64,000 bases of DNA from Candidatus Heimdallarchaeota archaeon (GCA_019057375.1 DXJF01000097.1:22313-86312); one strand, 5' to 3'; shown: positions 23,838 to 37,455, counted from the stretch's first letter. A program made the numbers and translations. Notes: generated by a model from the sequence alone, not told the origin.

Positions 23838-25181
23838 CTATTGTCCTAATAACCCAGGTGGTATTCCTGGTATTTGCATTCCTCCGCGTCTTCCTTTACG
23901 CATGCGTTTTACCAGATTGGTCATCATCTTGTGTTGGGCCATTAGTTCTCTAACTTCTGAAACAGGTCTCCCACTACCTTTAGCAATTCGTTGAACTCTA
24001 GAACTCCCCAATTTAGTTTTTCCATCTAGTTCTTCATTTGTCATAGAGGTCATAATGACTTTGAATCTTTTCATATTGTCCTTTGAAACATCGAGCATAT
24101 CTTCATCAATAGTCATTCCTAATCCTGGAATCATTGAAAGCATTCTCTTCATTGAACCAGAGGAGCTGAAAGTGTCTAACAATTCCATCATTTGTCTATA
24201 GGAGATTTTACCACTTAGCATGCTCATTGCTTCCTCTTTTGAGGGAAGTGCCTCCATTTCTCGTACTTCTTTCAAAAGACCTTCTAAATCCCCTACTCCA
24301 ATAAGTCTTCCTACAAACGAAGTTGGGTTGAATTCCTCCAAAGAATCGATATCTTCACCATCAGCGAGGAATTTAATTGGAACCTTAACTGCTACTGCTG
24401 CAGAGAGACTACCACCACCCTTAGCTGAACCATCCATTTTAGTAACAATAACTGATCCTACTTTGGTTACTTCTGCAAAGGCAGAAGCTTGATCATGAGC
24501 CGCTTGTCCGAGATTTCCATCTACAACAAGTATAATCTCATCTGGCTTTATTTTATCATTAAGTTCTTTCATTTCTTTAAGAAGAGCTTTTTCCTCTTTG
24601 TGACGTCCAGCTGTATCAATAATGATTGTGTTATACTTTTCATCCAAAAATTTCTTAACACCATCTGCTGCAATTTTGACAGTATGTTTATTTTCAGGGT
24701 CACCATAAACAGGTACTTTAATACTTGAGCAAAGTTGTTGCAATTGTTCATAGGCACCGGGTCTAAAATTATCGACAGTTACAACTGCAACCTTTTTACC
24801 TCTTTTTTGAATGTATTTCGCTAGTTTTGCTGTTGTGGTTGTTTTTCCTGATCCTTGAATCCCTACCAACATTATTAGTGTTGGTTTGTTTGGATGTAAA
24901 GTAAGGGGGTAAACCTTTGTTCCTAGAAACTTAGAAAGCTCATCATGTATGATTGACAAAACACTTTTTTTACGAGATAAACCATCCGGAAGTCCCTTAT
25001 CCATAGATTTACGTTCAACTTCATTAACTACCTCTGCAGCTAAATCAAATTGAACATCAGCTTCTAATAAAGCTTTTAACATTGCATTCTTTAATTCACG
25101 AATTTGCTCTTTATCTGGAGGACCACCTCTAAGTATCTTAGAAATTGCGGTGTTAAGAGCAGAACCTAGTTTACCTAACAT
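23838..25181 (-). CDS. srp54: Signal recognition particle protein SRP54
   Basis: GIQGSGKTTT, DTAGRH, TKMDG, M-domain SRVQRIAKGSG. Confidence 0.97.
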   Translation of the reverse strand: MLGKLGSALNTAISKILRGGPPDKEQIRELKNAMLKALLEADVQFDLAAEVVNEVERKSMDKGLPDGLSRKKSVLSIIHDELSKFLGTKVYPLTLHPNKPTLIMLVGIQGSGKTTTTAKLAKYIQKRGKKVAVVTVDNFRPGAYEQLQQLCSSIKVPVYGDPENKHTVKIAADGVKKFLDEKYNTIIIDTAGRHKEEKALLKEMKELNDKIKPDEIILVVDGNLGQAAHDQASAFAEVTKVGSVIVTKMDGSAKGGGSLSAAVAVKVPIKFLADGEDIDSLEEFNPTSFVGRLIGVGDLEGLLKEVREMEALPSKEEAMSMLSGKISYRQMMELLDTFSSSGSMKRMLSMIPGLGMTIDEDMLDVSKDNMKRFKVIMTSMTNEELDGKTKLGSSRVQRIAKGSGRPVSEVRELMAQHKMMTNLVKRMRKGRRGGMQIPGIPPGLLGQ

Positions 25182-25259
25182 GGATTATCATTTGAAGAAT
25201 GCAAAAGAGATTAAAGAATATTTTGTTTTGAGGGAAAAGAAAAAAAGAGAGGGTAGGAA

Positions 25260-26159
25260 CTAAAATTTTAATTCTTCAGGTTTGATTCGGATTGGTTCTC
25301 CAGTTAATTTTACTCTGCGTTTAACTTTGAGAGAATTAACGAAGTAAACTTTTCCGCCAACTTCTGAACGACGACCAATAAAGACATCGTGTCCTTTTAC
25401 GTCACCAGTAACTGATGTGGCTCTAATATCGACGTTATTTTTTGCAAATAAGTTGCCACCAACTTTGTATGGATGTTTGACAATGCTACCGATTCTTAGA
25501 CTTAGCCATCTTTTCCATCCTTTCAAACCTAGAGTTACATTTTCTCCTACTAAGTTTCCTTTAACATTAGCTGCTCCCTCTACTGTAACATCTTTTTGTG
25601 ATAGGAGATTTCCACCTACTCCTATGGTTCCTGAAGATTTTACACCATTGTTTGTTTGTAGATTTCCACCTACTTTGAAAGAACCAGAGGATTTTGTGAA
25701 ACCTTGTACAGTAGTTTCTCCTTCAATCTTTGCTGATCCAGCAAATTTGGCATCACCACTACCAATCAAATCTCCACCAACCCTGAAAGATCCAGAAGAT
25801 TTGATGGGACCTAAAATATTAGCATCTTGACCAATTTTTGCAGAGCCACTAAACCTAGCAGAAGATTCGCTCACAAGTCCACCAGATATACCAAAGGATC
25901 CAGAACTTCTAACTGTACCCAAAGAAGTTAAGTTTCCTTCACCTTTTAATGATCCTGAGGTTTTTATTCCAGCACATTTAAAATCTCCAGCAAGTCTTCC
26001 TGAACCTGAAATTTTGACAAATTTAGGAATAACTCCACCGGATATATTTGATGATCCAGAGATTTTAACTAAATCTTCTGATTCCTTTAAACTTCCAGCA
26101 GAGCTGATTGTAGCTCTCTGTTCAACATTTTCGTTTGTTTCTTTAATTGTTTTTTCCAT
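25260..26159 (-). CDS. Bactofilin-like (polymer-forming cytoskeletal) beta-helix protein
   Basis: Repeated SGS/xGx-hydrophobic beta-solenoid units; C-terminal G.V.G..V.IG...V.G.V. Confidence 0.7.
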   Translation of the reverse strand: MEKTIKETNENVEQRATISSAGSLKESEDLVKISGSSNISGGVIPKFVKISGSGRLAGDFKCAGIKTSGSLKGEGNLTSLGTVRSSGSFGISGGLVSESSARFSGSAKIGQDANILGPIKSSGSFRVGGDLIGSGDAKFAGSAKIEGETTVQGFTKSSGSFKVGGNLQTNNGVKSSGTIGVGGNLLSQKDVTVEGAANVKGNLVGENVTLGLKGWKRWLSLRIGSIVKHPYKVGGNLFAKNNVDIRATSVTGDVKGHDVFIGRRSEVGGKVYFVNSLKVKRRVKLTGEPIRIKPEELKF

Positions 26160-26189
26160 TTATTTCACCTTTCTGTTTCATTATCTTAA

Positions 26190-27095
26190 TTACAATCTTA
26201 GTTTTTCATGGCTTATTTTTACTGGCTCATTAGCTAAATCTGCTCTCTTGTTAACATCTATGTAATCAACATAAAAAACAGTACCTTCTACATTGGTAAA
26301 TGGTCCAATCTCGACTTTGAGACCTTTAACATCGCCGTCTACATTGGTATTAGCCAAATAAACTTCCCCAGTACCTAAAACATGCCCTTCAATTATTGAT
26401 TTCTTAAGAGATCGAAATCTTAGACCAAGGAAATCCTTTCCTTTATTGATAAGAATATCATCGCCTACTAAATCACCTTCGACCATAATTCGTCCAGCCG
26501 CTTCAACAATTCCTTGAGATAATAGGTTACCTTCAATTCTAGCAGAACCTGAAAATTTTGCTCCGCTTTCAGCTTGTAAAAGTCCTCCAGTAGTAAAACT
26601 ACCAGCTGCTACAATTCTGCCTTTGAGAATAGTTTCTAAGCCTACTTTTGTAGAACCTGCGAATTTTGCATCTTGATCTCCATGTAAGAAACCAGCGCAC
26701 TTAAAAGATCCAGCAGTATTGATGTCTCCATGGGCAGTAATGCTACCATTACTCTTTAGGGAACCAGCAGATTTCAAGTTGTTACATTCAACATCATTTT
26801 CAATTTTTCCAGAACCTGCGATGCGAATATCCTTTCCAACATACCCTCCTGAGATTTTAGTTGATCCAGCAACTGATAGAGATTTATCAGTTGATACCTT
26901 AACTCCTGAAGTATAAATCTGAGAAGCTTCTTTGTGTTGTTCAAAATTTTCTTTAGCATCATCAAGCTTTTGGAGATAACGTTCTTTTAATTCAACATAG
27001 TTTTGTTTATCGATTTCTCCTTTGTCAAACCTCTTTTCCAAGAGTTCTAATAATTCTTCATACATTTTGACTTCGTTTTTAGACAATTGTATCAC
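26190..27095 (-). CDS. Bactofilin-like beta-helix protein with N-terminal SHOCT-like domain
   Basis: LELLEKRFDKGEIDKQNYVELKERY then AGS-repeat solenoid; paralogue of 25260-26159. Confidence 0.7.
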   Translation of the reverse strand: MIQLSKNEVKMYEELLELLEKRFDKGEIDKQNYVELKERYLQKLDDAKENFEQHKEASQIYTSGVKVSTDKSLSVAGSTKISGGYVGKDIRIAGSGKIENDVECNNLKSAGSLKSNGSITAHGDINTAGSFKCAGFLHGDQDAKFAGSTKVGLETILKGRIVAAGSFTTGGLLQAESGAKFSGSARIEGNLLSQGIVEAAGRIMVEGDLVGDDILINKGKDFLGLRFRSLKKSIIEGHVLGTGEVYLANTNVDGDVKGLKVEIGPFTNVEGTVFYVDYIDVNKRADLANEPVKISHEKLRL

Positions 27096-27253
27096 TATGA
27101 TACCAATAACATCGCTTTATTTAATCATTTTTTTAATTGGTTAGAACAAGTGCTTAATCGCCAGGTTAAACGTTTTTAATATCAAGGTAAAGAGGATAAA
27201 CCATATAGCTTAAGGTTAAACCAACCAGTGAAAAAATCCACAAAAGGTAAGAA

Positions 27254-27295
27254 TGGTGCGGGGAGGGAGATTCGAACTCCCGAACCACTAAGGAA
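27254..27295 (-). pseudogene. tRNA-Leu 3' fragment, copy 1 (part left of the inserted element)
   Basis: Plus strand TGGTGCGGGGAGGGAGATTCGAACTCCCGAACCACTAAGGAA is nearly identical to 31861-31902. Confidence 0.92.
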
Positions 27296-27343
27296 AGGTG
27301 TTTTTTTATCGTGTTTAAATATCAAATTACAGATATAAAAGTG

Positions 27344-29269
27344 ATGAATTCTGTGCTTGTAAAAGATCTCGAAGAAGAAAAGGAAGTTCAAAAAACCTAT
27401 TCCTTAGTTCTTAGATTTCAAAATCTAGCACAAAGAAAAGAAGCTAACCATCGAGTCAGCGATTTAGAAGATAAACAATCACTATTACTATATGATACTT
27501 CTACTCAAAAAATTGCAAGAGATTTAGCTCGCGAAAATCCAAATGTTTCATTTCCTATTTCTAAAATCCAAAAATCTTCGAGGAGCAGTTCAAATATCTC
27601 TTTCAGTGCTTATAATTGGTTGTTTGCAGCATCAAAAGTGTCTGTTGATAAGGAAAAGAAAGTAGCTGATTTATTCCAGTTTCTGTTACAAAATCCACAG
27701 CAAGCAATTGAATGGGTGATTCTTGGACGTTCTCCCTATACTGAAATTTCTCTTTCGAAGAAATGGAGAGTAGATTATGTATATGTTATAAATCTCTTGA
27801 CAAGTACTAGACGAAAAACTAACACTTATTGGAAAAAGAATTTTACTATGAGCTTTAAAGAAAAGCAACTAGAGTTCAATTCAAAGCTTCCAAAGACAAC
27901 ACAATTTGAAGTTGAACAAGCAATACAAGACTGCTATGAAGTAAAGGTAGAAGAGTATGCAAAATTGAAGAAAACTACTGAAAAACAATATACTTTTCTT
28001 GATAAATTAGCTTTGGTAGTGAAACATAAGTATGTTATAGCTCCATATGTAACTTCTTGGATTAATCTTTCTCAAAAAGCTCGGTGGAAAAGCTTAAAGC
28101 AACTGAGTAAACAACTTGCTGAAACGATTGGTCAAATCAATGAAAAACTCCATTCTACAATAAGATTGATAGTAGTTTTTGCACTCTTCTCAAAACTGTG
28201 GGGGACTGTATCTAAATTAATTGATTCAACTAATCCAGAAGAAGTTGTAAGTTCTCCGTTTGAAAGAAAAAAAGCGAATTTACCAATTAAAATGTTAATG
28301 AAACATGAATATGACATAATTCGACCTGGTAACTCTCAAAAGATGACACAACTTGCTAAAGAACAAGGATGCTTTGAACTTGGATTTCCATGTAAAGGAA
28401 AAAAAAGAATAACAGGTAATCTTCTGTTTACAGAAAAAATTATCGAATATCTGAAAAATGGTGCTAGTGTAAGAATCTTACAAATTAAAAGTGGAAAAGC
28501 TCCTAACTACAAACCCAAGATTTCAGTTGTTCTTCATGGTACTCCTAGCATGTTTGTGAGCACCAAACTAGCACAAAAATATGCTAACAGTATGAATCTC
28601 ACTGCTGCTAATATCTTAGGGCTAGATGTCAATAGAGTAGGAAAACACATGTTGTCGTTCTCTAATGAAGTTCCATTGGATTCTAGATTGAGATCTTTAT
28701 CAAACCATTACCTCTCCTTAACAAGAAAAGAAATTCCAAGATTGAGTAACTCACTAAAAACTAAAGGTAAGCAAAAAGATAGTTATGGTTATATTAAAAC
28801 AAAGGGTGAGCTAAATAGGATATATAACAAAAGAACTAATATAATTAAGGAAATTAAGAGAATAATACCACATTACATTGCGGGAGTTATTATCAAGAGT
28901 AAGTGTAAATTTTTTTGTATAGAAGAGTTTCGTAAGAATCCAAGAGGGAAAAGAGGTGCATTAGCAAAAGCAATATACAACATGCCTTACGAAGACAATA
29001 TTTTTGAAAAAGCAGTCCAGATTGCGACTCACATTCTTAGTTATAAAGTGAAACTTGTATATGTAAGTGCTCGTAACACAAGTAAATATCATTATAGTTG
29101 TAGAGGTGTGATTCAAAGAGATCTTAAAAATTATGATTATGCTCTCTGTAAAAAATGTGGTGAACGAGTAAATACACATATTAATGCTGCTAAAAACATT
29201 GCGAAGAAAGGAGAAACAATAATAAAGCAAATCAAGCTTCCCCTAGACGCCGCTAAGGGGACGGGGTAA
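27344..29269 (+). CDS. tnpB: Large TnpB/Cas12-like RuvC + Zn-ribbon protein (~641 aa from ATG 27344; track start 27311)
   Basis: RuvC-I ILGLDVN, RuvC-II FCIEE, SARNTSK, HxxC...CxxC ribbon, NTHINAAKNI terminal motif. Confidence 0.85.
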   Translation: MNSVLVKDLEEEKEVQKTYSLVLRFQNLAQRKEANHRVSDLEDKQSLLLYDTSTQKIARDLARENPNVSFPISKIQKSSRSSSNISFSAYNWLFAASKVSVDKEKKVADLFQFLLQNPQQAIEWVILGRSPYTEISLSKKWRVDYVYVINLLTSTRRKTNTYWKKNFTMSFKEKQLEFNSKLPKTTQFEVEQAIQDCYEVKVEEYAKLKKTTEKQYTFLDKLALVVKHKYVIAPYVTSWINLSQKARWKSLKQLSKQLAETIGQINEKLHSTIRLIVVFALFSKLWGTVSKLIDSTNPEEVVSSPFERKKANLPIKMLMKHEYDIIRPGNSQKMTQLAKEQGCFELGFPCKGKKRITGNLLFTEKIIEYLKNGASVRILQIKSGKAPNYKPKISVVLHGTPSMFVSTKLAQKYANSMNLTAANILGLDVNRVGKHMLSFSNEVPLDSRLRSLSNHYLSLTRKEIPRLSNSLKTKGKQKDSYGYIKTKGELNRIYNKRTNIIKEIKRIIPHYIAGVIIKSKCKFFCIEEFRKNPRGKRGALAKAIYNMPYEDNIFEKAVQIATHILSYKVKLVYVSARNTSKYHYSCRGVIQRDLKNYDYALCKKCGERVNTHINAAKNIAKKGETIIKQIKLPLDAAKGTG

Positions 29270-29334
29270 ATAAACCCCTCAAGTAAACCTAAAGTTTCTA
29301 CGAGAACCTAGTAAACTTCATTACGTGCGTGGAA
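29232..29334 (+). ncRNA. Putative omega-RNA scaffold / right end of the element
   Basis: Hairpins CCCCT(29240-44)/AGGGG(29256-60), GGGGT(29263-67)/ACCCC(29274-78) and GTTTCT/AGAAC, overlapping the tnpB 3' end; 5' boundary approximate. Confidence 0.55.
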
Positions 29335-29347
29335 CGGATGACTTATT
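29335..29347 (-). pseudogene. Remainder of tRNA-Leu fragment copy 1 (anticodon 3' strand + intron 3' end)
   Basis: CGGATGACTTATT vs CGGATGGCTCATC in the intact gene (10/13). Confidence 0.65.
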
Positions 29348-29398
29348 ATTTTAATAAATAATAGTTAGCTTAGATAAGAAAAATAGATTTGAAAAAAT

Positions 29399-29502
29399 TG
29401 GTGCGGAGAGGGAGATTCGAACTCCCGAACTACAAAGGAACGGATTTCTTATCTATTCTCTAACCCTTATCTTAGGTTTAAAACTAAGATCTTAAGTCCA
29501 CC
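29399..29502 (-). pseudogene. tRNA-Leu(TAA) partial copy 2 (anticodon arm + full intron + 3' exon + CCA; lacks 5' acceptor strand and D-arm); att-like repeat
   Basis: Collinear with 31861-31963 including TCTTAAGTCC; homology stops at about tRNA position 27. Confidence 0.92.
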
Positions 29503-29548
29503 TTGAAACATAAAAGTATTAAAGGTTTAAAAGACAAAATAGGATTAA

Positions 29549-30427
29549 ATGTCTAGTAAAAATTGGGACACTGTAATAGAGTTACTAGAAACAATCACGC
29601 CCTCATATTACTTAGAAAAGGAGCTTAAAGCTACATTCAAATCTAATCTCCAATATAGAATAGGAAAATACTCTGAGAATTGTCGATATTTCTTTCAGGA
29701 AGGTTTCGAAAAAAAATATTCAAATATTATTCCATCAGCAATAATTGTACCAAGGAAGTCAGGAACTAATATAAGCAAAATCGCAAATGAAGCTGTTATA
29801 TATTTTAAACAAAGCTTGGAATTGTTTAAAACATTGGATAACGTTGAAGAAAATGTGAGTCCATTATTGGAATATTATGGATTATTACAATGTGTTAAGG
29901 GAGTAGTAATTTTAGAATTAGATGTGAAAAGTGACAAGATATTTAGTAAGCATGGTTTAACTCAAGAAACAAGATTTCATTCAAAAATAGATGAACCAAA
30001 ATCAACAAAAAAATATAAACTAAAAATGATTAAGAGAATTAAGCCATCAAAATATATCAACGCTAAAATTATGCCTTATGGTGTTTTAACATCTTTAATC
30101 ATTCGTTTCACAGATCATTATGATGAACTTTATTCTGACAGAGACATATACAAAATAAGTAAGCATTCTATGGATAAATACGTAACAGGATACTATAGAC
30201 CTTCATTAGAAGAAATAACAACCAATCATCATGTAGATCCAATAATTGCTTTCATAGGTTCTTGGATGTTATCAACATTGGTAAGATATAAAGCAAAAAT
30301 GTGGCAAGAAATATGTTTGGGAGAAAAAGATGACATAATAAATAATATTAGAAAATTTAGGAGGGAAAAAATACCTAAAGCAGTAGAAACTATGCTAATG
30401 GATTATGTAAGAAAGAGCTCTTGGTAA
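29549..30427 (+). CDS. YaaC-like family protein
   Basis: YFKQS.E.F...PLLEYYG.L...HGL and MLSTLVRY....W.....GE motifs resemble YaaC. Confidence 0.6.
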   Translation: MSSKNWDTVIELLETITPSYYLEKELKATFKSNLQYRIGKYSENCRYFFQEGFEKKYSNIIPSAIIVPRKSGTNISKIANEAVIYFKQSLELFKTLDNVEENVSPLLEYYGLLQCVKGVVILELDVKSDKIFSKHGLTQETRFHSKIDEPKSTKKYKLKMIKRIKPSKYINAKIMPYGVLTSLIIRFTDHYDELYSDRDIYKISKHSMDKYVTGYYRPSLEEITTNHHVDPIIAFIGSWMLSTLVRYKAKMWQEICLGEKDDIINNIRKFRREKIPKAVETMLMDYVRKSSW

Positions 30428-30509
30428 CAGCTTAAAGAGTATTCATAAGTACTACAAAAGCTTAAAAAATAATGAATGAAAAAGGAAGGAGAGAAAGGAG
30501 GGGAGACAA

Positions 30510-31853
30510 GTGCAAGAGGATAATAGCGAAAATTTAGCTGAGCCAATAGGAATTAAAGAATTAGGAAAGAGAATAATTCTTCTCCCTTATCACATTATAA
30601 GGCTCATAGTAAATAATGTTTTACTATTTATTTTAGGAAGTATAGAAAATGGAGTAATAATTGTAAGAGCAAAAAAAAGTATCAAGATTGAAGAAGGAAT
30701 AAAAAAACTCATACAGGAAAACGAATGTATTCTAAGAAAAAGTATCTACTTAAAGAAAAACGATAGTATAGACGAGATTAAACCAGAAGAGGAAGAAGAG
30801 CAAGAAGTAAAACGAATAAATGTTTTGAATAGAATAATGGCTATAGTAGTAATTTCAATAGTTTGGTCGTTTCAAATTGTGTTGAGAGTCATAGTTTGGA
30901 TATTTATCTTGATTAATTGTTTAACCATTAGAAAGAAAGTAGGTTTAAAGGAGTGGGAAGAGAATAATTTGGGATATTACAGAGAAACCATAAAATATCT
31001 TACAGGTATTAGTGAAGAAATACCTTTTTGGAAAGAATTAGGTGGTTGGGGCGAAGGTTTATTATTTATATTAGTATTTGATTTGGTTGTTATTAGGAAT
31101 GGATTCTTAAGATTGTGTAGGATAATTCTTGGAGATACTTACAGTTATTATTTGATTATTTCGTTAGTATATATCATAATTTTCGTAATTCTTATACCAA
31201 AATATCTGAAGTTTCCAAGTAAAAGTGGGGAAAGGAAAACTAAGCAAATAGTAAGAAGAATAGGAGTAAAAAAACCAAAAAGTATAGCAAGGACTCTCTT
31301 AATTGTGATTCTACTATTAGCAATTAAATTAGGAATTATTTATGGAATATCCTTGCTAATAGATTATAATGTAGAAAATTTTATTTTCCCAGTAAATACA
31401 GGTTATATAATTGCAGTAAGTATGAGTGCAGGTATTGCTGAAGAAATAATATACAGGGGATATGTAATAGAAGTAACAAAAAGAAAATATGGAACTTTAG
31501 TAACTATGATAATTTCAGGGTGTCTTTTTGGACTTGCACATTTTGCGCTTAATCCATCCATTTATAGTTTTGTTCAGATGTTGTTCGTAACCTTTATAGG
31601 AATAACATATGCGTATTTCAGAATTCTATCAGATTCATTGATAGGACCAATAGTCATGCACACAATATATGACATAATTGTACTATCAGTAGTATATACA
31701 ACAGAAAAAATACCTGATTATGTCGTGTATTTGATAGCAATTACATTGAGTATTATAATAACAATAATTTCAATTAATTTGCTGAAACTAATATACAAAG
31801 ACAAAGAACTATTGATATTTAAGAAAAGAGGGAAAGAACAGAAGGAAGGATAA
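30510..31853 (+). CDS. CPBP (Abi/CAAX-type) intramembrane glutamic endopeptidase with long N-terminal extension
   Basis: EEIIYRG, FGLAH and H-x-x-x-D (MHTIYD) motifs; multiple TM helices. Confidence 0.9.
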   Translation: MQEDNSENLAEPIGIKELGKRIILLPYHIIRLIVNNVLLFILGSIENGVIIVRAKKSIKIEEGIKKLIQENECILRKSIYLKKNDSIDEIKPEEEEEQEVKRINVLNRIMAIVVISIVWSFQIVLRVIVWIFILINCLTIRKKVGLKEWEENNLGYYRETIKYLTGISEEIPFWKELGGWGEGLLFILVFDLVVIRNGFLRLCRIILGDTYSYYLIISLVYIIIFVILIPKYLKFPSKSGERKTKQIVRRIGVKKPKSIARTLLIVILLLAIKLGIIYGISLLIDYNVENFIFPVNTGYIIAVSMSAGIAEEIIYRGYVIEVTKRKYGTLVTMIISGCLFGLAHFALNPSIYSFVQMLFVTFIGITYAYFRILSDSLIGPIVMHTIYDIIVLSVVYTTEKIPDYVVYLIAITLSIIITIISINLLKLIYKDKELLIFKKRGKEQKEG

Positions 31854-31860
31854 AGGAAAA

Positions 31861-31989
31861 TGGTGCGGGGAGGGAGATTCGAACTCCCGAACTACTAAAG
31901 AACGGATGGCTCATCTGACTTCTAACCCTTATCTTAGGCATAAACCAAGATCTTAAGTCCGCCGCCGTTGGCCACTTGGCTATCCCCGC
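31861..31989 (-). tRNA. tRNA-Leu(TAA) with 44-nt intron at 37/38 (31908-31951), CCA encoded
   Basis: GCGGGGA/TCCCCGC acceptor, GCGGA-CTTAAG[intron]A-TCCGT, GTTCGAAT T-loop; BHB central helix CTTA/TGAG. Confidence 0.96.
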
Positions 31990-32073
31990 CAACAAAGTCT
32001 CAATGTTTGACTATTATAATGAATTTCATTCTTCTTTTAAGATTTTTCATCTTGATTTGAAATTGATTGAAGA

Positions 32074-33387
32074 TCATGGATGGAGTCTTGTTGGATCTCT
32101 TGGTAGTAATCTCGCTTCTCTAATATTAGGTAAATCAAGGATCTTTTGCACAAATCTTTCAATTCCTGTACCACTTCCTCCATGTGGAGGTGCTCCATTT
32201 CTAAAGAACTGCAGATAACTGTCAACCTCTTCAAGCTTGAAATCCTTTTCAACAGCTTGCTTGGCTAAAATATCTACTCTGTGTTCTCTTTGTCCTCCAG
32301 TGGTTAATTCTTGTCCTTTGAATAAGAGATCAAAAGATTTTGTCAATCTTGGATCTTCATCATCCTTCATAGTATAGAATGGTCTAATTTTCCAAGGATA
32401 TTGGTCTACGAATACAAAGTCTGAATTCCATTTCTCTTTTGCATACCTACCAATTATTCCCTCTGCTTCAGCGTCTAAATCTTCATAGAGGTCTAGTTCT
32501 TTTCCTTCACTTGCTAAAACTTCATTACATTCAGGAATTGTAATTATTGGCCATTCTTTGGGTTGATCATCAATTTGAACTCCCAATACTTCAAGAGAAT
32601 TAGCTCTAGATGTTTTTATTGTTTTGAGAGCAAAACCAATTGCGCCTTGTATTACTTTCATGACATCTTTTTGATCATTAATGTATGAAATCTCAAAATC
32701 TATAGAAGTATATTCGCATAAATGACGATTAGTGTGGTGTTTCTCAGCTCTAAAAACAGGCCCTATTTCAAAAACTCTTTCAAATCCTGCCATTAACATC
32801 ATTTGTTTATAGAATTGAGGGGATTGTGCTAAGTATGCTTTTTTATCAAAATAATTTATTTCAAAAACACTAGCGCCACTTTCTGTTGCTGAACCAACAA
32901 TTTTAGCTGAAAAGAACTGTAAGAAGTCGTTATCTCTAAAATATTGTTGAATTGCATAAGCAGCAGTACTCTCAATTTCGAAAATGTGAGCAATCTTTTT
33001 ATCTCTTAAATCTAGAAACCTATAATCGTATCTCTTATCAGGATTTGTTTCAATCTTATCACCAACTGAAATTGGATATTCTTGAGCTCTTTTATTGATA
33101 ATTTCAATCTCAGACGGAAGGATTTCCTTTCCATTTGGGGCACTTTCATTGGTTACGACATTTCCAGTAACTGCAATTATATCTCCTTCTTGAAAATCTA
33201 AAGCAAATATCTCTTCAGATACTTTCTTTTTGGGTAAAACTATTTGTACAATCCCTGTTCTATCTTGTAATTGAATGAATCGTAATCCTCCAAGATTGCG
33301 AACTTGTTGAACCCATCCTGCAATCGATATCTTTTCACCTGTTGTAGAAAAAACCTTCTCAATAGGATTTCTTTGACTAAAGTCCAT
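32074..33387 (-). CDS. aspS: Aspartyl-tRNA synthetase, probably non-discriminating Asp/Asn type
   Basis: YLAQSPQFYKQ, FRAE, GAPPHGG.G.G.ER; Q and P at the positions that are W and K in discriminating archaeal enzymes (WVQQ, SAPNG). Confidence 0.93.
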   Translation of the reverse strand: MDFSQRNPIEKVFSTTGEKISIAGWVQQVRNLGGLRFIQLQDRTGIVQIVLPKKKVSEEIFALDFQEGDIIAVTGNVVTNESAPNGKEILPSEIEIINKRAQEYPISVGDKIETNPDKRYDYRFLDLRDKKIAHIFEIESTAAYAIQQYFRDNDFLQFFSAKIVGSATESGASVFEINYFDKKAYLAQSPQFYKQMMLMAGFERVFEIGPVFRAEKHHTNRHLCEYTSIDFEISYINDQKDVMKVIQGAIGFALKTIKTSRANSLEVLGVQIDDQPKEWPIITIPECNEVLASEGKELDLYEDLDAEAEGIIGRYAKEKWNSDFVFVDQYPWKIRPFYTMKDDEDPRLTKSFDLLFKGQELTTGGQREHRVDILAKQAVEKDFKLEEVDSYLQFFRNGAPPHGGSGTGIERFVQKILDLPNIREARLLPRDPTRLHP

Positions 33388-33532
33388 GTTACAGTCCTCA
33401 GTTTATTTGTTTGCACCTTTGAAAGTTTATTAAAAAAGATTCTCTTCTTTGTTGTATAAAAATGTGAAAAAAATGACTTTCTGAGAAAAAACGTTATTTA
33501 GCTATTATCCTAATAACTTTGTAGCGATACTA

Positions 33533-34222
33533 ATGAAGAAGATTGTACTAAAGTTTGGTGGTTCTGTTTTATACAAAGAAGAAATGGTTCTAAATGTTGA
33601 GAGAATAAAGGAAATTGTTGAAACCATTAACACCCTCCATGATGCAGGGCATAAAGTTGCTGTGGTTGTTGGAGGAGGAAAATTAGCGAGAGTTATCATT
33701 CAAGCAAGCGATGTCCTTGGACATGTATCTACTTTCAAAGACATTCTTGCAGTGGAATCAACTCGAATTCATGCTTTGCTAGTAATTGCTTCACTCCAAA
33801 ATAAAGCATATTTGCTTGTTCCTCGTTCATTCGAAGAAATTGGTAAAGCACTCTCGACTGGAAAGATTGTTGTTACTGGAGGTCTTCAACCAGGGCAATC
33901 TACAAATGCTGTTGCAGCTCTTGTAGCAGAATACTGGGGCGCTGATTTACTGATAAATTTGACAAATGTAGATAAGGTCTATGATAAAGATCCCAACCTG
34001 TTTGAAGATGCTAAACCTTTAGATGAACTTTCAGCGGATGAACTGTTGGAGATTATATCAAAACAAGATGAAGAACCAGGTAAATATGCCCTCTTTGACA
34101 GAGTAGGATGTGAAATAGTGAAAAGATCCAATTTAAGACTAATATTTACAAATGGTTCTGATCCTAAGAACATTTTGAGAATTGTTGATGGAGAAAATAT
34201 TGGAACTGTAGTTAATGGATAA
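33533..34222 (+). CDS. pyrH: UMP kinase
   Basis: KFGGS, VVGGGK, GGLQPGQST, YDKDP. Confidence 0.95.
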   Translation: MKKIVLKFGGSVLYKEEMVLNVERIKEIVETINTLHDAGHKVAVVVGGGKLARVIIQASDVLGHVSTFKDILAVESTRIHALLVIASLQNKAYLLVPRSFEEIGKALSTGKIVVTGGLQPGQSTNAVAALVAEYWGADLLINLTNVDKVYDKDPNLFEDAKPLDELSADELLEIISKQDEEPGKYALFDRVGCEIVKRSNLRLIFTNGSDPKNILRIVDGENIGTVVNG

Positions 34223-34237
34223 GTCTTTCTTTTTTTT

Positions 34238-35509
34238 CTAATAACTATCATATGTTTTGTATCGGAGAATTGCTGCTATCCCACCAAATGCATTGTATAA
34301 CATAGCCCCATCCTCATGATCGGATGAAATGACCTCTAGTGTGGCACCAGTATTCTCGGCTTTTTCATTCAATTCAGTTATTAAATCACTTTCACTTTCA
34401 ATATACAATTTGGAATTTCCGCAATCAGGACATTTTTTATCAGATAATTTTTTTACGAAATCATTGTAATCTTTGCTTTTTACCGACTCAATGGTTGAGT
34501 AATCACACCCATCACATCTAATTTCCATATTAATTCTATCTACATCCTCACTTACTAAAACAATATCAACAGCTGCTTTTTCTAATGCTTCCAAAACTTC
34601 CTTTTCTCCATAAGTAACTAGTCCTGTGTCTTTTCCCAAATGTTCCATGAATTTTTGTGTGAGTTGGCGCTCCTTAACTAACTCAAAATCAGACAATTTA
34701 TCTGCAGCTTTATCTAGAAGTTCTCGAATCCCTACTGAGCCCAAATATCCAATATCATAGATTCCTATGACTTTTTCAAGCAATCGATAATCAATTTCCT
34801 TACTTTCCAAAAATTCTGCTTTTGATAAAGCTGGACCACCAACAACTATTGCTTCAACAGGATAATCTTCAAGATAAACAGTATTCATGATATCTGCAAT
34901 TTTGCCATACCATCTTTGAGCCGCTTCTTCAGTTAATCTTTGAAAACGAGCTTGAGACTGACCACCCATTTTATGTTTACCAGGAACATTAGATTCTTCT
35001 TCACGAATTATATCTAATCGGGAGCCTTGAACAGTTGCTAGTGTTGCTCCTCCTCGAGCAATTAATGCTAACCCATACCTTTGTTTGCTTTCTAACATCT
35101 CTTTAAGATGATCAATATGAAATACATAATCACAGAGATAGAGCTTAATTCCTACGGGATCTGGAGGGCTAATTAGGAAAAACTCCACCTTATTGTTTTG
35201 AGTAATTCCACAGAAGATAACAAGACCATTTACTCCAGAATCAGGAATAGTTTTTATCCTAGACATGATAGAGGAAAGCGCAGATTGGACAGCTTTTCCA
35301 GTGCTTTTGTCTTTAATATTTGTTGCAGTTCCGTATTCATCACGCAACTGGGCATTAACATCAGATAACCTAGTACCGGGAGGAATATATAGGGTAACTA
35401 AACTTGTAGACATGTTAAAACTTTTTTTGGACTCTAATTTGTCTATTTCATGTTTTAACATATAACGTTCTACTGATGTTCTTTTCTTTTCTTCCTGTTT
35501 CTTTGTCAT
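34238..35509 (-). CDS. prf1: Peptide chain release factor aRF1
   Basis: TNIKD, YLCD, GGQSQARF, GGIAAILRY. Confidence 0.97.
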   Translation of the reverse strand: MTKKQEEKKRTSVERYMLKHEIDKLESKKSFNMSTSLVTLYIPPGTRLSDVNAQLRDEYGTATNIKDKSTGKAVQSALSSIMSRIKTIPDSGVNGLVIFCGITQNNKVEFFLISPPDPVGIKLYLCDYVFHIDHLKEMLESKQRYGLALIARGGATLATVQGSRLDIIREEESNVPGKHKMGGQSQARFQRLTEEAAQRWYGKIADIMNTVYLEDYPVEAIVVGGPALSKAEFLESKEIDYRLLEKVIGIYDIGYLGSVGIRELLDKAADKLSDFELVKERQLTQKFMEHLGKDTGLVTYGEKEVLEALEKAAVDIVLVSEDVDRINMEIRCDGCDYSTIESVKSKDYNDFVKKLSDKKCPDCGNSKLYIESESDLITELNEKAENTGATLEVISSDHEDGAMLYNAFGGIAAILRYKTYDSY

Positions 35510-35675
35510 GGTATCTCCTCGGAGTAAGGTAAACTAAAGAACTATGCTTCAGTATAGCACTTTAGACAAAATTTCAAGATTTGTTATTATCTTTTTGGTT
35601 ATGAGTCTTTAGAAATGATGAGAAATAATAGGGAAATATTTTTAGAAAGAACAAATAGTTAACATTCTGATAATA

Positions 35676-35930
35676 ATGGTAGAGAAACAACAGATAGAAA
35701 TTGATTTATTAGATATTTTTGTTTCGCTAAATAGGGGTTTGAATCTCTCAGATGTAATGTTTCAGCTAAATAATCTTTATGCTCCTAAAGGAGAAAGTGT
35801 GGAGCAAGAAGTGCTCATGGAAGTTTTAAATTCATTAACAGAAAAAGATTATTTGAAGAATTTTCAGGTGGGAGCATTAGATAGTTGGAAAATCACTGAT
35901 GAAGGAGAAGATTATTTCTATAATCTCTAA
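35676..35930 (+). CDS. Small winged-helix-like hypothetical protein
   Basis: Helix-helix-L..L...YL...W.IT..G pattern; 84 aa. Confidence 0.45.
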   Translation: MVEKQQIEIDLLDIFVSLNRGLNLSDVMFQLNNLYAPKGESVEQEVLMEVLNSLTEKDYLKNFQVGALDSWKITDEGEDYFYNL

Positions 35931-35956
35931 TTGTAAATAAGTAAGAGAAGAGTAGA

Positions 35957-36715
35957 ATGGAATTAAGGGAAAGTACAGGATTACCTATTATTAGTGAAGA
36001 GACTGTACTAAAATATAGTGAAAGTGAAATTAGTGTAAAAGATGTAATAATTCACAGAACCAAGGACATTTCCAACTTCTTGTTGAAAAAAGAATGGGAA
36101 GGAAAAGATGAGGAAGAAGAAGTGTTTAGAATCTATAAAGGAATAAGGAAAGTAGTAGATAAACACCTTTGGGATGTAATGAGATTTGATTTCTTAATTA
36201 TCCAAGCTGGAAAATTAGGAGAAGAATGTTACAAGACTTCTGGTTACTATAGATCCTTTGCAGGTACAGGATACCGTTTTTCCGAGATCTATCAAGTTGT
36301 TGAAGGATATTCGGAATTCTTAATCCAACAATTCGGGGAGACCCATGAGAAAATTAAAGATGCTGTAATGATAAGGGCACAAAAATTTGATACTGTTATT
36401 GTACCTCCTTCTTACGGAGTTTCGATAATTAATCCAAGTGACCAAAAAGTTGTTCTTGCAAGAATCCGTGCAGACGATGCTAAGGAAATTAAGGATGACT
36501 ATGAAAGAACAAAAGGGGAATGTTATATTAGGGGAGAAGAAGGGAGATGGATGTATAATGAGAACTATCATGAAATACCCAATCTGAGATTAGAACCACC
36601 TCAAAATAAATGGAGATCTTTGAAAAGAGGTATTCCGATTTATAGTATATATGTATACAAACCAAGAATATTTGCACCTTTATTAGAACCAGACCCAGCT
36701 GACTATGTTATTTGA
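35957..36715 (+). CDS. Cupin-type glucose-6-phosphate isomerase family protein (metal ligands degenerate)
   Basis: G.LGEE.YKT.G, EIY.V..G...L.Q, V.VPP.YG...INP. Confidence 0.75.
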   Translation: MELRESTGLPIISEETVLKYSESEISVKDVIIHRTKDISNFLLKKEWEGKDEEEEVFRIYKGIRKVVDKHLWDVMRFDFLIIQAGKLGEECYKTSGYYRSFAGTGYRFSEIYQVVEGYSEFLIQQFGETHEKIKDAVMIRAQKFDTVIVPPSYGVSIINPSDQKVVLARIRADDAKEIKDDYERTKGECYIRGEEGRWMYNENYHEIPNLRLEPPQNKWRSLKRGIPIYSIYVYKPRIFAPLLEPDPADYVI

Positions 36716-37345: not shown

Positions 37346-37455
37346 TGGTGGGGCATAGCAGATTTGAACTGCCGACCCCCCGGTTTTTGAGTTAAATGCT
37401 TAACAAACAAATAACATATCAGCCGAGTGCTCTAACCAAGCTGAGCTAATGCCCC
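37346..37455 (-). tRNA. tRNA-Ile(GAT) with 32-nt intron at 37/38 (37385-37416), CCA encoded
   Basis: GGGGCAT/ATGCCCC acceptor, CTCGG-CTGATA[intron]A-CCGGG, GTTCAAAT. Confidence 0.95.

Follow-up and report, generated by a model that had tools for sequence, protein, structure and literature searches.

The tRNA-Leu(UAA) locus of an Asgard archaeon was analysed within a 64,000-nucleotide stretch of a Candidatus Heimdallarchaeota genome (GCA_019057375.1 DXJF01000097.1:22313-86312); the whole stretch is referred to here as the window, and positions are counted from its first letter. An intact, intron-containing tRNA-Leu(UAA) gene is accompanied by two partial copies of itself, a TnpB-family insertion sequence (IS) and an islet of two open reading frames (ORFs) (Table 1). 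The gene and the relics (copy 2, copy 1a and copy 1b) all lie on the minus strand, and alignments confirmed both the single orientation and the extents given to this three-copy series by the initial annotation, which was made from the sequence alone. The window lies on contig C47 of a metagenome-assembled genome (MAG), designated G000, of 3.47 Mb in 159 contigs, with 89% completeness and 4.95% contamination. The genus sample comprised G000 and 24 congeners (25 genomes). The tRNA-Leu(UAA) flanks were fetched for 20 congener loci, the survey of functional alleles covered the 25 tRNA-Leu(UAA) genes of the genus, G000 included, and the species relationships were taken from an eRF1 tree. The pairings of the bulge-helix-bulge (BHB) motif and the variable arm were read directly from the sequence of the gene and the copies.

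Table 1. Features of the tRNA-Leu(UAA) locus in the window.
Feature	Position	Strand	Basis
Copy 1a: last 42 nt (variable arm 3' side, T arm, acceptor 3' strand, CCA)	27254-27295	minus	Alignment to gene
TnpB-family insertion sequence	27296-29330	plus	Pfam PF07282, NCBIfam guided_TnpB, PADLOC, paralogue right ends
Copy 1b: exon 2 start and last intron bases, 16-mer repeat	29331-29346	minus	Repeat search (family D2)
52-nt spacer between copy 1b and copy 2	29347-29398		Copy of the tRNA's downstream native flank, diverged and AT-shifted
Copy 2: 5' strand of anticodon stem to CCA, complete intron, intact BHB	29399-29502	minus	Alignment to gene
Islet A, 2.36 kb, two ORFs	29503-31860	plus	Pfam, NCBIfam, composition
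YaaC-like ORF	29549-30427	plus	Pfam/NCBIfam
DUF4389 and Rce1/CPBP intramembrane protease ORF	30510-31853	plus	Pfam/NCBIfam
tRNA-Leu(UAA) gene, encoded CCA, 44-nt intron	31861-31989	minus	Rfam RF00005, ARAGORN, orthologues

The Rfam tRNA model RF00005 matched the gene at 31864-31989 on the minus strand (44.2 bits), the anticodon loop containing an insertion of 47 nt. ARAGORN, with introns allowed, called tRNA-Leu(taa) i(39,44): the intron of 44 nt follows linear position 38, at the canonical site 37/38, and spans window 31908-31951. This is the single tRNA-Leu(UAA) gene in the G000 assembly, and orthologues with 81-99% identity were present in 24/24 congeners. The BHB has a 4-bp central helix CUUA/UGAG, 3-nt bulges AG^A and CC^A (^ marks the predicted splice site) and an outer helix UCU/AGA. 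By its canonical site, its 4-bp helix and its two 3-nt bulges at the predicted splice sites, the intron appears to be of the archaeal BHB type. Minimum-free-energy folding of the gene did not recover the BHB and was of no help in judging it.

The comparison across relatives suggested by the initial annotation revealed an empty site in 18 of the 20 congener loci, with the tRNA directly against the native flank and no insert. Segments 24000-27298 and 31857-36000 are joined directly in G011, G013 and G009 (93-96% identity), and the same direct join was seen in G018, as far as its contig extends, and in many more distant congeners. In the empty-site species the two segments overlap by the last ~45 nt of the tRNA. 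As the flanks are contiguous in these 18 loci, positions 27296-31860 (4.56 kb) are inserted DNA. Like a genomic island, the inserted DNA is bounded by an intact tRNA gene and direct-repeat fragments; among the 20 fetched loci, extra tRNA-Leu fragments were present in G024 and G022 only.

Copy 1a aligns to gene positions 85-129 with 93% identity and is continuous with the native flank; flank and copy 1a together are collinear with the flank and tRNA 3' end of G011, G013, G009 and G018 (93-95% identity). Copy 1b adjoins the TnpB element's right end without a gap, where an omega-RNA guide would be located, and matches the functional allele of G010/G006 at 16/16 positions and the gene of G000 itself at 13/16. 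When 29335-29347 is joined to 27254-27295, a continuous tRNA 3' portion is obtained. The last 54 nt of this joined copy 1 are identical (54/54) to the functional genes of G010 and G006, which form the sister clade of the clade of G000, and differ from G000's own gene at 5 positions. The identity with G010/G006 rules out chance as the source of the match between copy 1 and the gene.

Copy 2 lacks the acceptor 5' strand and the D arm, and aligns to gene positions 27-129 with 86% identity. It differs from the gene by 15 changes, 11 of which are states present in functional orthologues while four are private to copy 2; within the intron there are 11 differing alignment columns, with one indel counted. 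The central helix CUUA/UGAG of the gene is CUUA/UAAG in both copies, and the UAAG strand is functional in 12 species. The outer UCU/AGA helix is retained in copy 2, and an acceptor C-to-T change, the T being the functional state in G009, gives a G-U pair. The initial annotation had described all three of these features correctly, including the pairing of both TGAG and TAAG with CTTA. Its account of the variable arm was right for the gene (CT..AG) and for copy 1 (CC..GG), and omitted copy 2, in which CC..AG leaves a C·A mismatch that arose from one further change, at column 97 or column 103. Across the 25 functional genes the arm was CT..AG in 15, CC..GG in 10 and mixed in none; the mixed states were confined to relics, namely copy 2 and a fragment in G024. 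The two allele classes are dispersed across the eRF1 tree.

These comparisons support the view that the fragments represent alternative functional alleles and not decayed duplicates. The differences between the copies look structure-preserving because each copy descends from a once-functional allele. The initial annotation had proposed that the differences are not random decay, and that each fragment allele might prove functional in some relative. The proposals stood for the inherited states, with copy 1 matching G010/G006 throughout and copy 2 sharing 11 of its 15 states, the other four being private; changes arising within the copy 2 relic show no bias to pairing. Judged on the window alone, the case for non-randomness is weak: every preserved stem change in copy 2 is a transition that creates or removes a G-U pair, as about half of random transitions do. 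The strong evidence for functional alleles comes from the relatives.

The spacer between copies 1b and 2 gave a local alignment score of 32 to 27190-27240 in the native flank, against a shuffle mean of 18.7 (p = 0.002), and its best matches are the native flanks of clade-A relatives (~70% identity). An origin from a sampled foreign species was rejected, the best match being to clade-A flanks and at ~70% identity only. The native flank 27190-27240 carries a motif with repeated GGTTAAACC-like units, which is kept across much of the genus, and positions 29353-29398 of the spacer are an AT-shifted copy of this GGTTAAACC-like flank.

The protein encoded by the TnpB-family element (ORF 27311-29269, 652 aa) has the RuvC-I Asp, the RuvC-II Glu, a His at the RuvC-III position and a zinc finger. 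It matched PF07282 with 27.6 bits and Cas12f/Cas12u models with E = 5e-10 (PADLOC); its match to NF040570 was under the cut-off. His stands for Asp at RuvC-III in all 7 paralogues with a recovered motif and in all 4 orthologues of the Leu lineage, and the first zinc ligand of this family (~650 aa) is also His. The family was present in 25/25 genomes of the genus, with 1-10 copies each. The 2,035-bp element splits copy 1 into 1a and 1b, with GGAA at both junctions. Ten G000 paralogues (42-46% identical) share a right-end motif, which stops at window 29330, and beyond it the flanks were unrelated in the 18 loci compared. Paralogues on contigs C92 and C21 have clean empty sites in sister species, where they are 2.08-2.14-kb insertions without duplication. 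Given the sharp right end, the unrelated flanks and the empty sites of the paralogues, 27296-29330 is an IS and not an integrative element.

GGAA was considered as a 4-nt target duplication and this was dropped, as the paralogues insert without duplication and the motif aligns with internal left-end sequence of the family. The left end of the Leu-linked copy is short relative to the paralogues and, in view of that alignment, looks truncated or divergent. The suggestion that the whole TnpB family targets tRNAs was also rejected, since copies are tRNA-adjacent only in the Leu lineage and in two other cases. The element resembles the IS200/IS605/IS607 superfamily in being multi-copy, in a protein that appears RuvC-like with a zinc finger, in a right end that overlaps and follows the ORF and ends sharply, and in paralogues with duplication-free insertions and clean empty sites. 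It differs in the length of the protein (650 aa, with a ~400-aa N-terminal part), in the RuvC-III His, and in having no TnpA nearby and no Y1 transposase in the genome (PF01797, 0 matches in G000; the resolvase genes adjoin no TnpB copy). It also differs in that the Leu-linked copy, with its short left end, is fixed at one tRNA site in four species.

TnpB orthologues were found next to tRNA-Leu(UAA) in G022, G017 and G003, with identities of 58-62% to G000 and G003 and of 83% between G022 and G017. The order in all three is right end, 13-22 nt of the exon-2/intron junction, a 20-75-nt spacer and the intact gene, and remnants of the tRNA 3' terminus are present at the left end of the cassette in G022 (17 nt) and G017 (12 nt). 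In G000, copy 2 takes the place that the intact gene has in this order. The ratio of nonsynonymous to synonymous divergence (dN/dS) of the TnpB ORF between G022 and G017 was 0.11, which indicates purifying selection, and its dS (0.85) was not below that of eRF1 (0.43). The shared cassette and this dS indicate that the cassette is old within that clade, although the sister species G012 and G008 have empty sites. Scanning metagenomes with the TnpB protein gave no relatives, and a scan with a 4-sequence alignment found one 51%-identical locus with a right-end flank that is not tRNA-like. A scan of genome contigs with the right-end-plus-guide motif matched only the three known congeners.

Islet A has the lowest GC content of the region (0.29-0.31), and its CPBP protease ORF stops 7 nt from the tRNA 3' end. 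No match to islet A DNA was found in any of the 24 congeners, and on this ground and its low GC the islet is clearly of foreign origin. Its proteins have no recombinase domain by Pfam and no PADLOC defence assignment. The YaaC-like protein had just 3 distant homologues, in an uninformative context, and the donor of the islet was not found. A different 2-kb insert is present at tRNA-Leu in G024 (L038 10007-12068), which groups with G011 in the eRF1 tree as the closest relatives of G000. It carries one solute-binding gene (649-aa SBP_bac_5) and no recombinase, and is closed by a 42-nt tRNA fragment with the mixed variable-arm state CT..GG. The end of this fragment is the exact base where the IS sits in G000.

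No integrase was found in the islet, where the ORFs are YaaC-like, CPBP protease and TnpB-like. The tyrosine recombinase family PF00589 had 0 matches in the 89%-complete G000, not even a Xer-type gene, whereas the same search matched 14/14 control genomes. The sole recombinases in G000 are four small stand-alone resolvase-type genes, located elsewhere among housekeeping genes. The island contains neither a tyrosine nor a large serine recombinase. Within the genus PF00589 was present in 12/25 genomes, mostly on short contigs, with no tRNA-like sequence within 1.5 kb of these loci, and a scan of viral contigs for the tRNA-Leu 3' end gave no match. The lengths of the repeats vary by event (42, about 58 and 104 nt), unlike a fixed attachment (att) core.

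Two other tRNA loci in G000 involve TnpB right ends. Contig C145 (90605-94346; L153 2606-6347) carries an old tRNA-Val(CAC) gene whose anticodon loop is interrupted by 3.66 kb of inserted DNA. The 5' half of the old gene is followed by the TnpB element, right end first, then by an intact new tRNA-Val(CAC) whose acceptor shows compensatory changes, by ~1.5 kb of small ORFs that gave no Pfam match, and finally by the old 3' part. The junctions have a 4-nt overlap, with TCAC at both, and G010 and G006 have the old allele intact at an empty site. Contig C65 (38335-40710; L135 1036-3410) contains a 5' fragment of tRNA-Val(GAC) that lacks an intron, is joined to its native upstream flank and lies directly against a TnpB right end. 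At a distance of 2.3 kb from the fragment, the functional tRNA-Val(GAC) has a 31-nt intron present only in G000 and G024; the gene is intron-less in 7 congeners. The 24 nt that follow the right end agree with the intron-less alleles of these 7 congeners at 24/24 positions, while in the functional gene of G000 the guide-matched stretch is broken by the intron after 13 nt. At all three loci, the sequence adjacent to the right end matches the functional tRNA alleles of other species better than the gene of G000.

Among further tRNA genes, a second intron-containing one was noted in the window at 37349-37455 on the minus strand (52 bits in Rfam, with 33 nt inserted in the anticodon loop); the default mode of ARAGORN overlooked both this gene and tRNA-Leu. 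With introns allowed, ARAGORN also called a tRNA-Ser(GCT) with a 431-nt intron in G000, which may be a false call or a tRNA split by a larger insert.

On balance, and with moderate confidence, we read the locus as layers left by successive replacements of the 3' part of tRNA-Leu(UAA), an essential gene with an intron, to which one IS was added. In the first layer, copy 1 would be what remains, next to the native flank, of the 3' end that the resident gene once had; its allele is still functional in the sister clade, and copy 1 is interrupted by the TnpB-family IS, whose right end meets the exon-2/intron junction. In the second layer, copy 2 would be the anticodon-stem-to-CCA part, with the whole intron, of the next functional gene, and behind it lies a copy of the native flank, 52 nt long and decayed. 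The homology of the spacer to that flank and the cassette order in the relatives suggest that, until the islet came in, copy 2 was most likely the functional gene of a locus arranged as in G022. Copy 2 would then have been cut off once the 2.36-kb low-GC islet with its two genes came between it and the present gene. We infer this order of events. Recombination may have been anchored by conserved tRNA homology, either as host recombination with foreign DNA or through a recombinase acting in trans, and we favour it over an island-encoded integrase since no integrase was found and the repeats end at different places. With a whole intron inside the displaced repeat, the intron did not prevent recombination at this gene.

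Several observations weigh against this layered reading. The present gene is identical to that of G024 except for one D-loop base, and its 3' intron half and exon 2 are those of G011, an empty-site species; copy 2 may therefore be the foreign piece, brought in as an arm resembling an attP (the attachment site of a mobile element) or with a donor block, and the present allele the native one, or the reverse. With either direction possible, the initial proposal that each element brought a new intron allele is not supported. Copy 1 is pristine (0 changes in 54 nt) beside a spacer that has diverged by ~30% from the native flank, which a simple neutral-relic history does not predict. An IS-free copy 1 was not found in any genome; together with the end point of the G024 fragment, this raises the possibility that the duplication is mechanistically tied to the IS. 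An integrase could also be missing from the 89%-complete assembly.

The initial annotation had pictured successive integrative elements, and the corresponding explanation is classical tandem site-specific integration. Two integrase elements with a tRNA-Leu attP would each have replaced the 3' part and the intron allele, their integrase genes being later lost or acting in trans. Direct repeats of the tRNA 3' part do bound the inserted DNA, it is well known that elements can form tandem arrays at a single att site (PMC6563490), and tyrosine recombinases occur sporadically in the genus. The identity blocks of anticodon-loop-targeting integrases reportedly start at the anticodon stem, as Williams is said to have described in 2002, and copy 2 begins there too. 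We nevertheless regard this history as unlikely: the islet has no integrase and the genome no PF00589 match, the genus integrase loci carry no tRNA-like sequence, no viral contig has this tRNA 3' end, and the repeat end points vary by event. The supposed 'element B' turned out to be the TnpB-family IS inside copy 1 and, without the IS, shrinks to 52 nt, and the spacer resembles the native flank, which is not expected in an attP. Purely local events are a much poorer prospect still and we consider them highly improbable. An old tandem duplication by slippage or unequal crossing-over, with decay, gene conversion and unrelated insertions and with no foreign alleles, would predict a spacer homologous to the native flank, and the cassette is common to distant species with a TnpB dS not below that of eRF1. 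Such a history is opposed by the clearly foreign islet A, by the dispersal of the two allele classes over the eRF1 tree, and by the variable-arm state of copy 1 and the G024 fragment, which is that of the outgroup clade and is absent from the functional genes of clade A.

Tying the turnover of tRNA alleles to TnpB itself is quite improbable in our judgement, although several observations are in its favour. The tRNA genes would be the targets and the guide at the right end the old tRNA allele. The functional tRNA would survive by mismatch to the guide, through its intron sequence, the presence of an intron or a different stem, and the cassette would spread by guided cleavage and repair, which would also bring about allele replacement and partial duplications. 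Three of the ten G000 copies abut a tRNA relic, always antisense and with a mismatched functional cognate nearby: the right-end stretch agrees with the G010 allele rather than with the own gene for Leu (16/16 versus 13/16), and with the intron-less alleles of 7 congeners for Val(GAC) (24/24, the own gene being intron-split after 13 nt), while for Val(CAC) the anticodon loop of the old gene is interrupted and the new allele lies within the 3.66-kb insert. The insertion point of the cassette is identical to the nucleotide in 4 species and its ORF is under purifying selection (dN/dS 0.11), 17-22 nt of tRNA-like sequence beside the right end were kept in these 4 species while the remainder decayed, and copy 1 is pristine although the spacer decayed. 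On the other hand, the guide equals the flank by construction for any such IS, and a mismatch with the functional gene is needed for viability under any mechanism. The RuvC-III His runs across the family, so that nuclease activity is only predicted, most family copies are not beside tRNAs, and no transposase partner was found. An artefact of assembly or binning, joining reads of related strains at a repeated tRNA segment, can practically be set aside. The MAG has 159 contigs and 4.95% contamination, and repeats are classic chimera points; but the similarity of the repeats here is just 85-93%, the outer flanks on either side are collinear with those of five sister species, and the cassette architecture recurs in three other species. 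In addition, the same 7.5 kb was found at 100% identity in a JGI metagenome contig and in GCA_019056895.1, making three records, which are possibly non-independent; given this identity, the locus is not obviously an assembly artefact.

Insertion hot spots at tRNA genes, with leftover gene fragments, are textbook knowledge. Genomic islands in tRNA genes with displaced 3' fragments, also in tandem arrays, are standard (PMC4383910, PMC8371274), and archaeal examples have been reviewed (PMC8371274). The present locus shares with the islands of Islander (PMC4383910) and of PMC8371274 an insert absent from relatives, a regenerated tRNA with a 3' direct repeat, several layers at one tRNA and fragments that mark the island ends. 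It differs in having no integrase in the islets or the assembly, islets of only 1-2 genes, repeat ends that vary by layer, and one repeat with a complete intron. For the Caldiarchaeum subterraneum tRNA-Thr(GGU), a mobile element with an intron-bearing tRNA-like site, from which the intron is swapped into the host gene, was proposed (Sugahara et al. 2012, PMC3293823). That locus too has a tRNA fragment and an intact gene that differs by an intron, separated by a repeated insertion sequence of ~2 kb. There, however, the 5' part is duplicated and the protein is merely a predicted recombinase, whereas here the 3' part and a canonical intron are duplicated and the repeated element is a TnpB-family IS; the Caldiarchaeum-like 5'-type arrangement in G000 is that of tRNA-Val(GAC) on contig C65. 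An intron-bearing tRNA-like repeat beside a regenerated gene with a different intron allele, the situation considered by Sugahara et al., is present at tRNA-Leu, and either copy could be the incoming one.

In Thaumarchaeota, 10/39 tRNA integrations were in intron-containing tRNA genes (Krupovic et al. 2019, PMC6563490). Those elements likewise show tRNA introns to be no bar to the targeting of insertions, but their att sites are short (median 17 bp) and 3'-distal, integrases are present and the intron is outside the repeat. The initial annotation had set an intron that does not block integration against the proposed protective role of tRNA introns. The whole intron in the displaced repeat agrees with the first part, and the contrast is not new, because PMC6563490 documents and PMC3293823 proposed such cases. 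What is new here is the lack of an integrase, a full canonical intron inside a 3' repeat, allele classes dispersed over the species tree, and a TnpB element fixed at the exon-2/intron junction in four species.

The integrase-less layers, with their varying end points, point to tRNA-anchored recombination as a way of acquiring small gene islets in archaea. As the relics carry the functional alleles of other species, and the intron lies in the repeat, tRNA exon and intron alleles appear to have been exchanged between species at this locus. The two tRNA-Val loci of G000 follow the same logic, one of them with an intron limited to G000 and G024. A 2026 preprint (10.64898/2026.10.13.758758) left the arrival route of Asgard tRNA introns open and found no association with mobile elements; the G000 loci are concrete candidates for testing this question. 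Tentatively, and with considerable doubt, the TnpB-like elements might act as an RNA-guided drive on tRNA alleles. Their right ends abut old tRNA alleles, the predicted guides match functional alleles of other species, and the tRNA of G000 itself would escape by its intron sequence (Leu), a gained intron (Val-GAC) or an element-borne gene (Val-CAC). This possibility is weakened by a guide that equals the flank by construction and by the His at RuvC-III. Were the nuclease active, the elements would be RNA-guided drives that force the turnover of tRNA alleles and favour intron gain. If true, this would provide a concrete arrival route for Asgard tRNA introns and a mechanistic form of the idea that introns protect tRNA genes.

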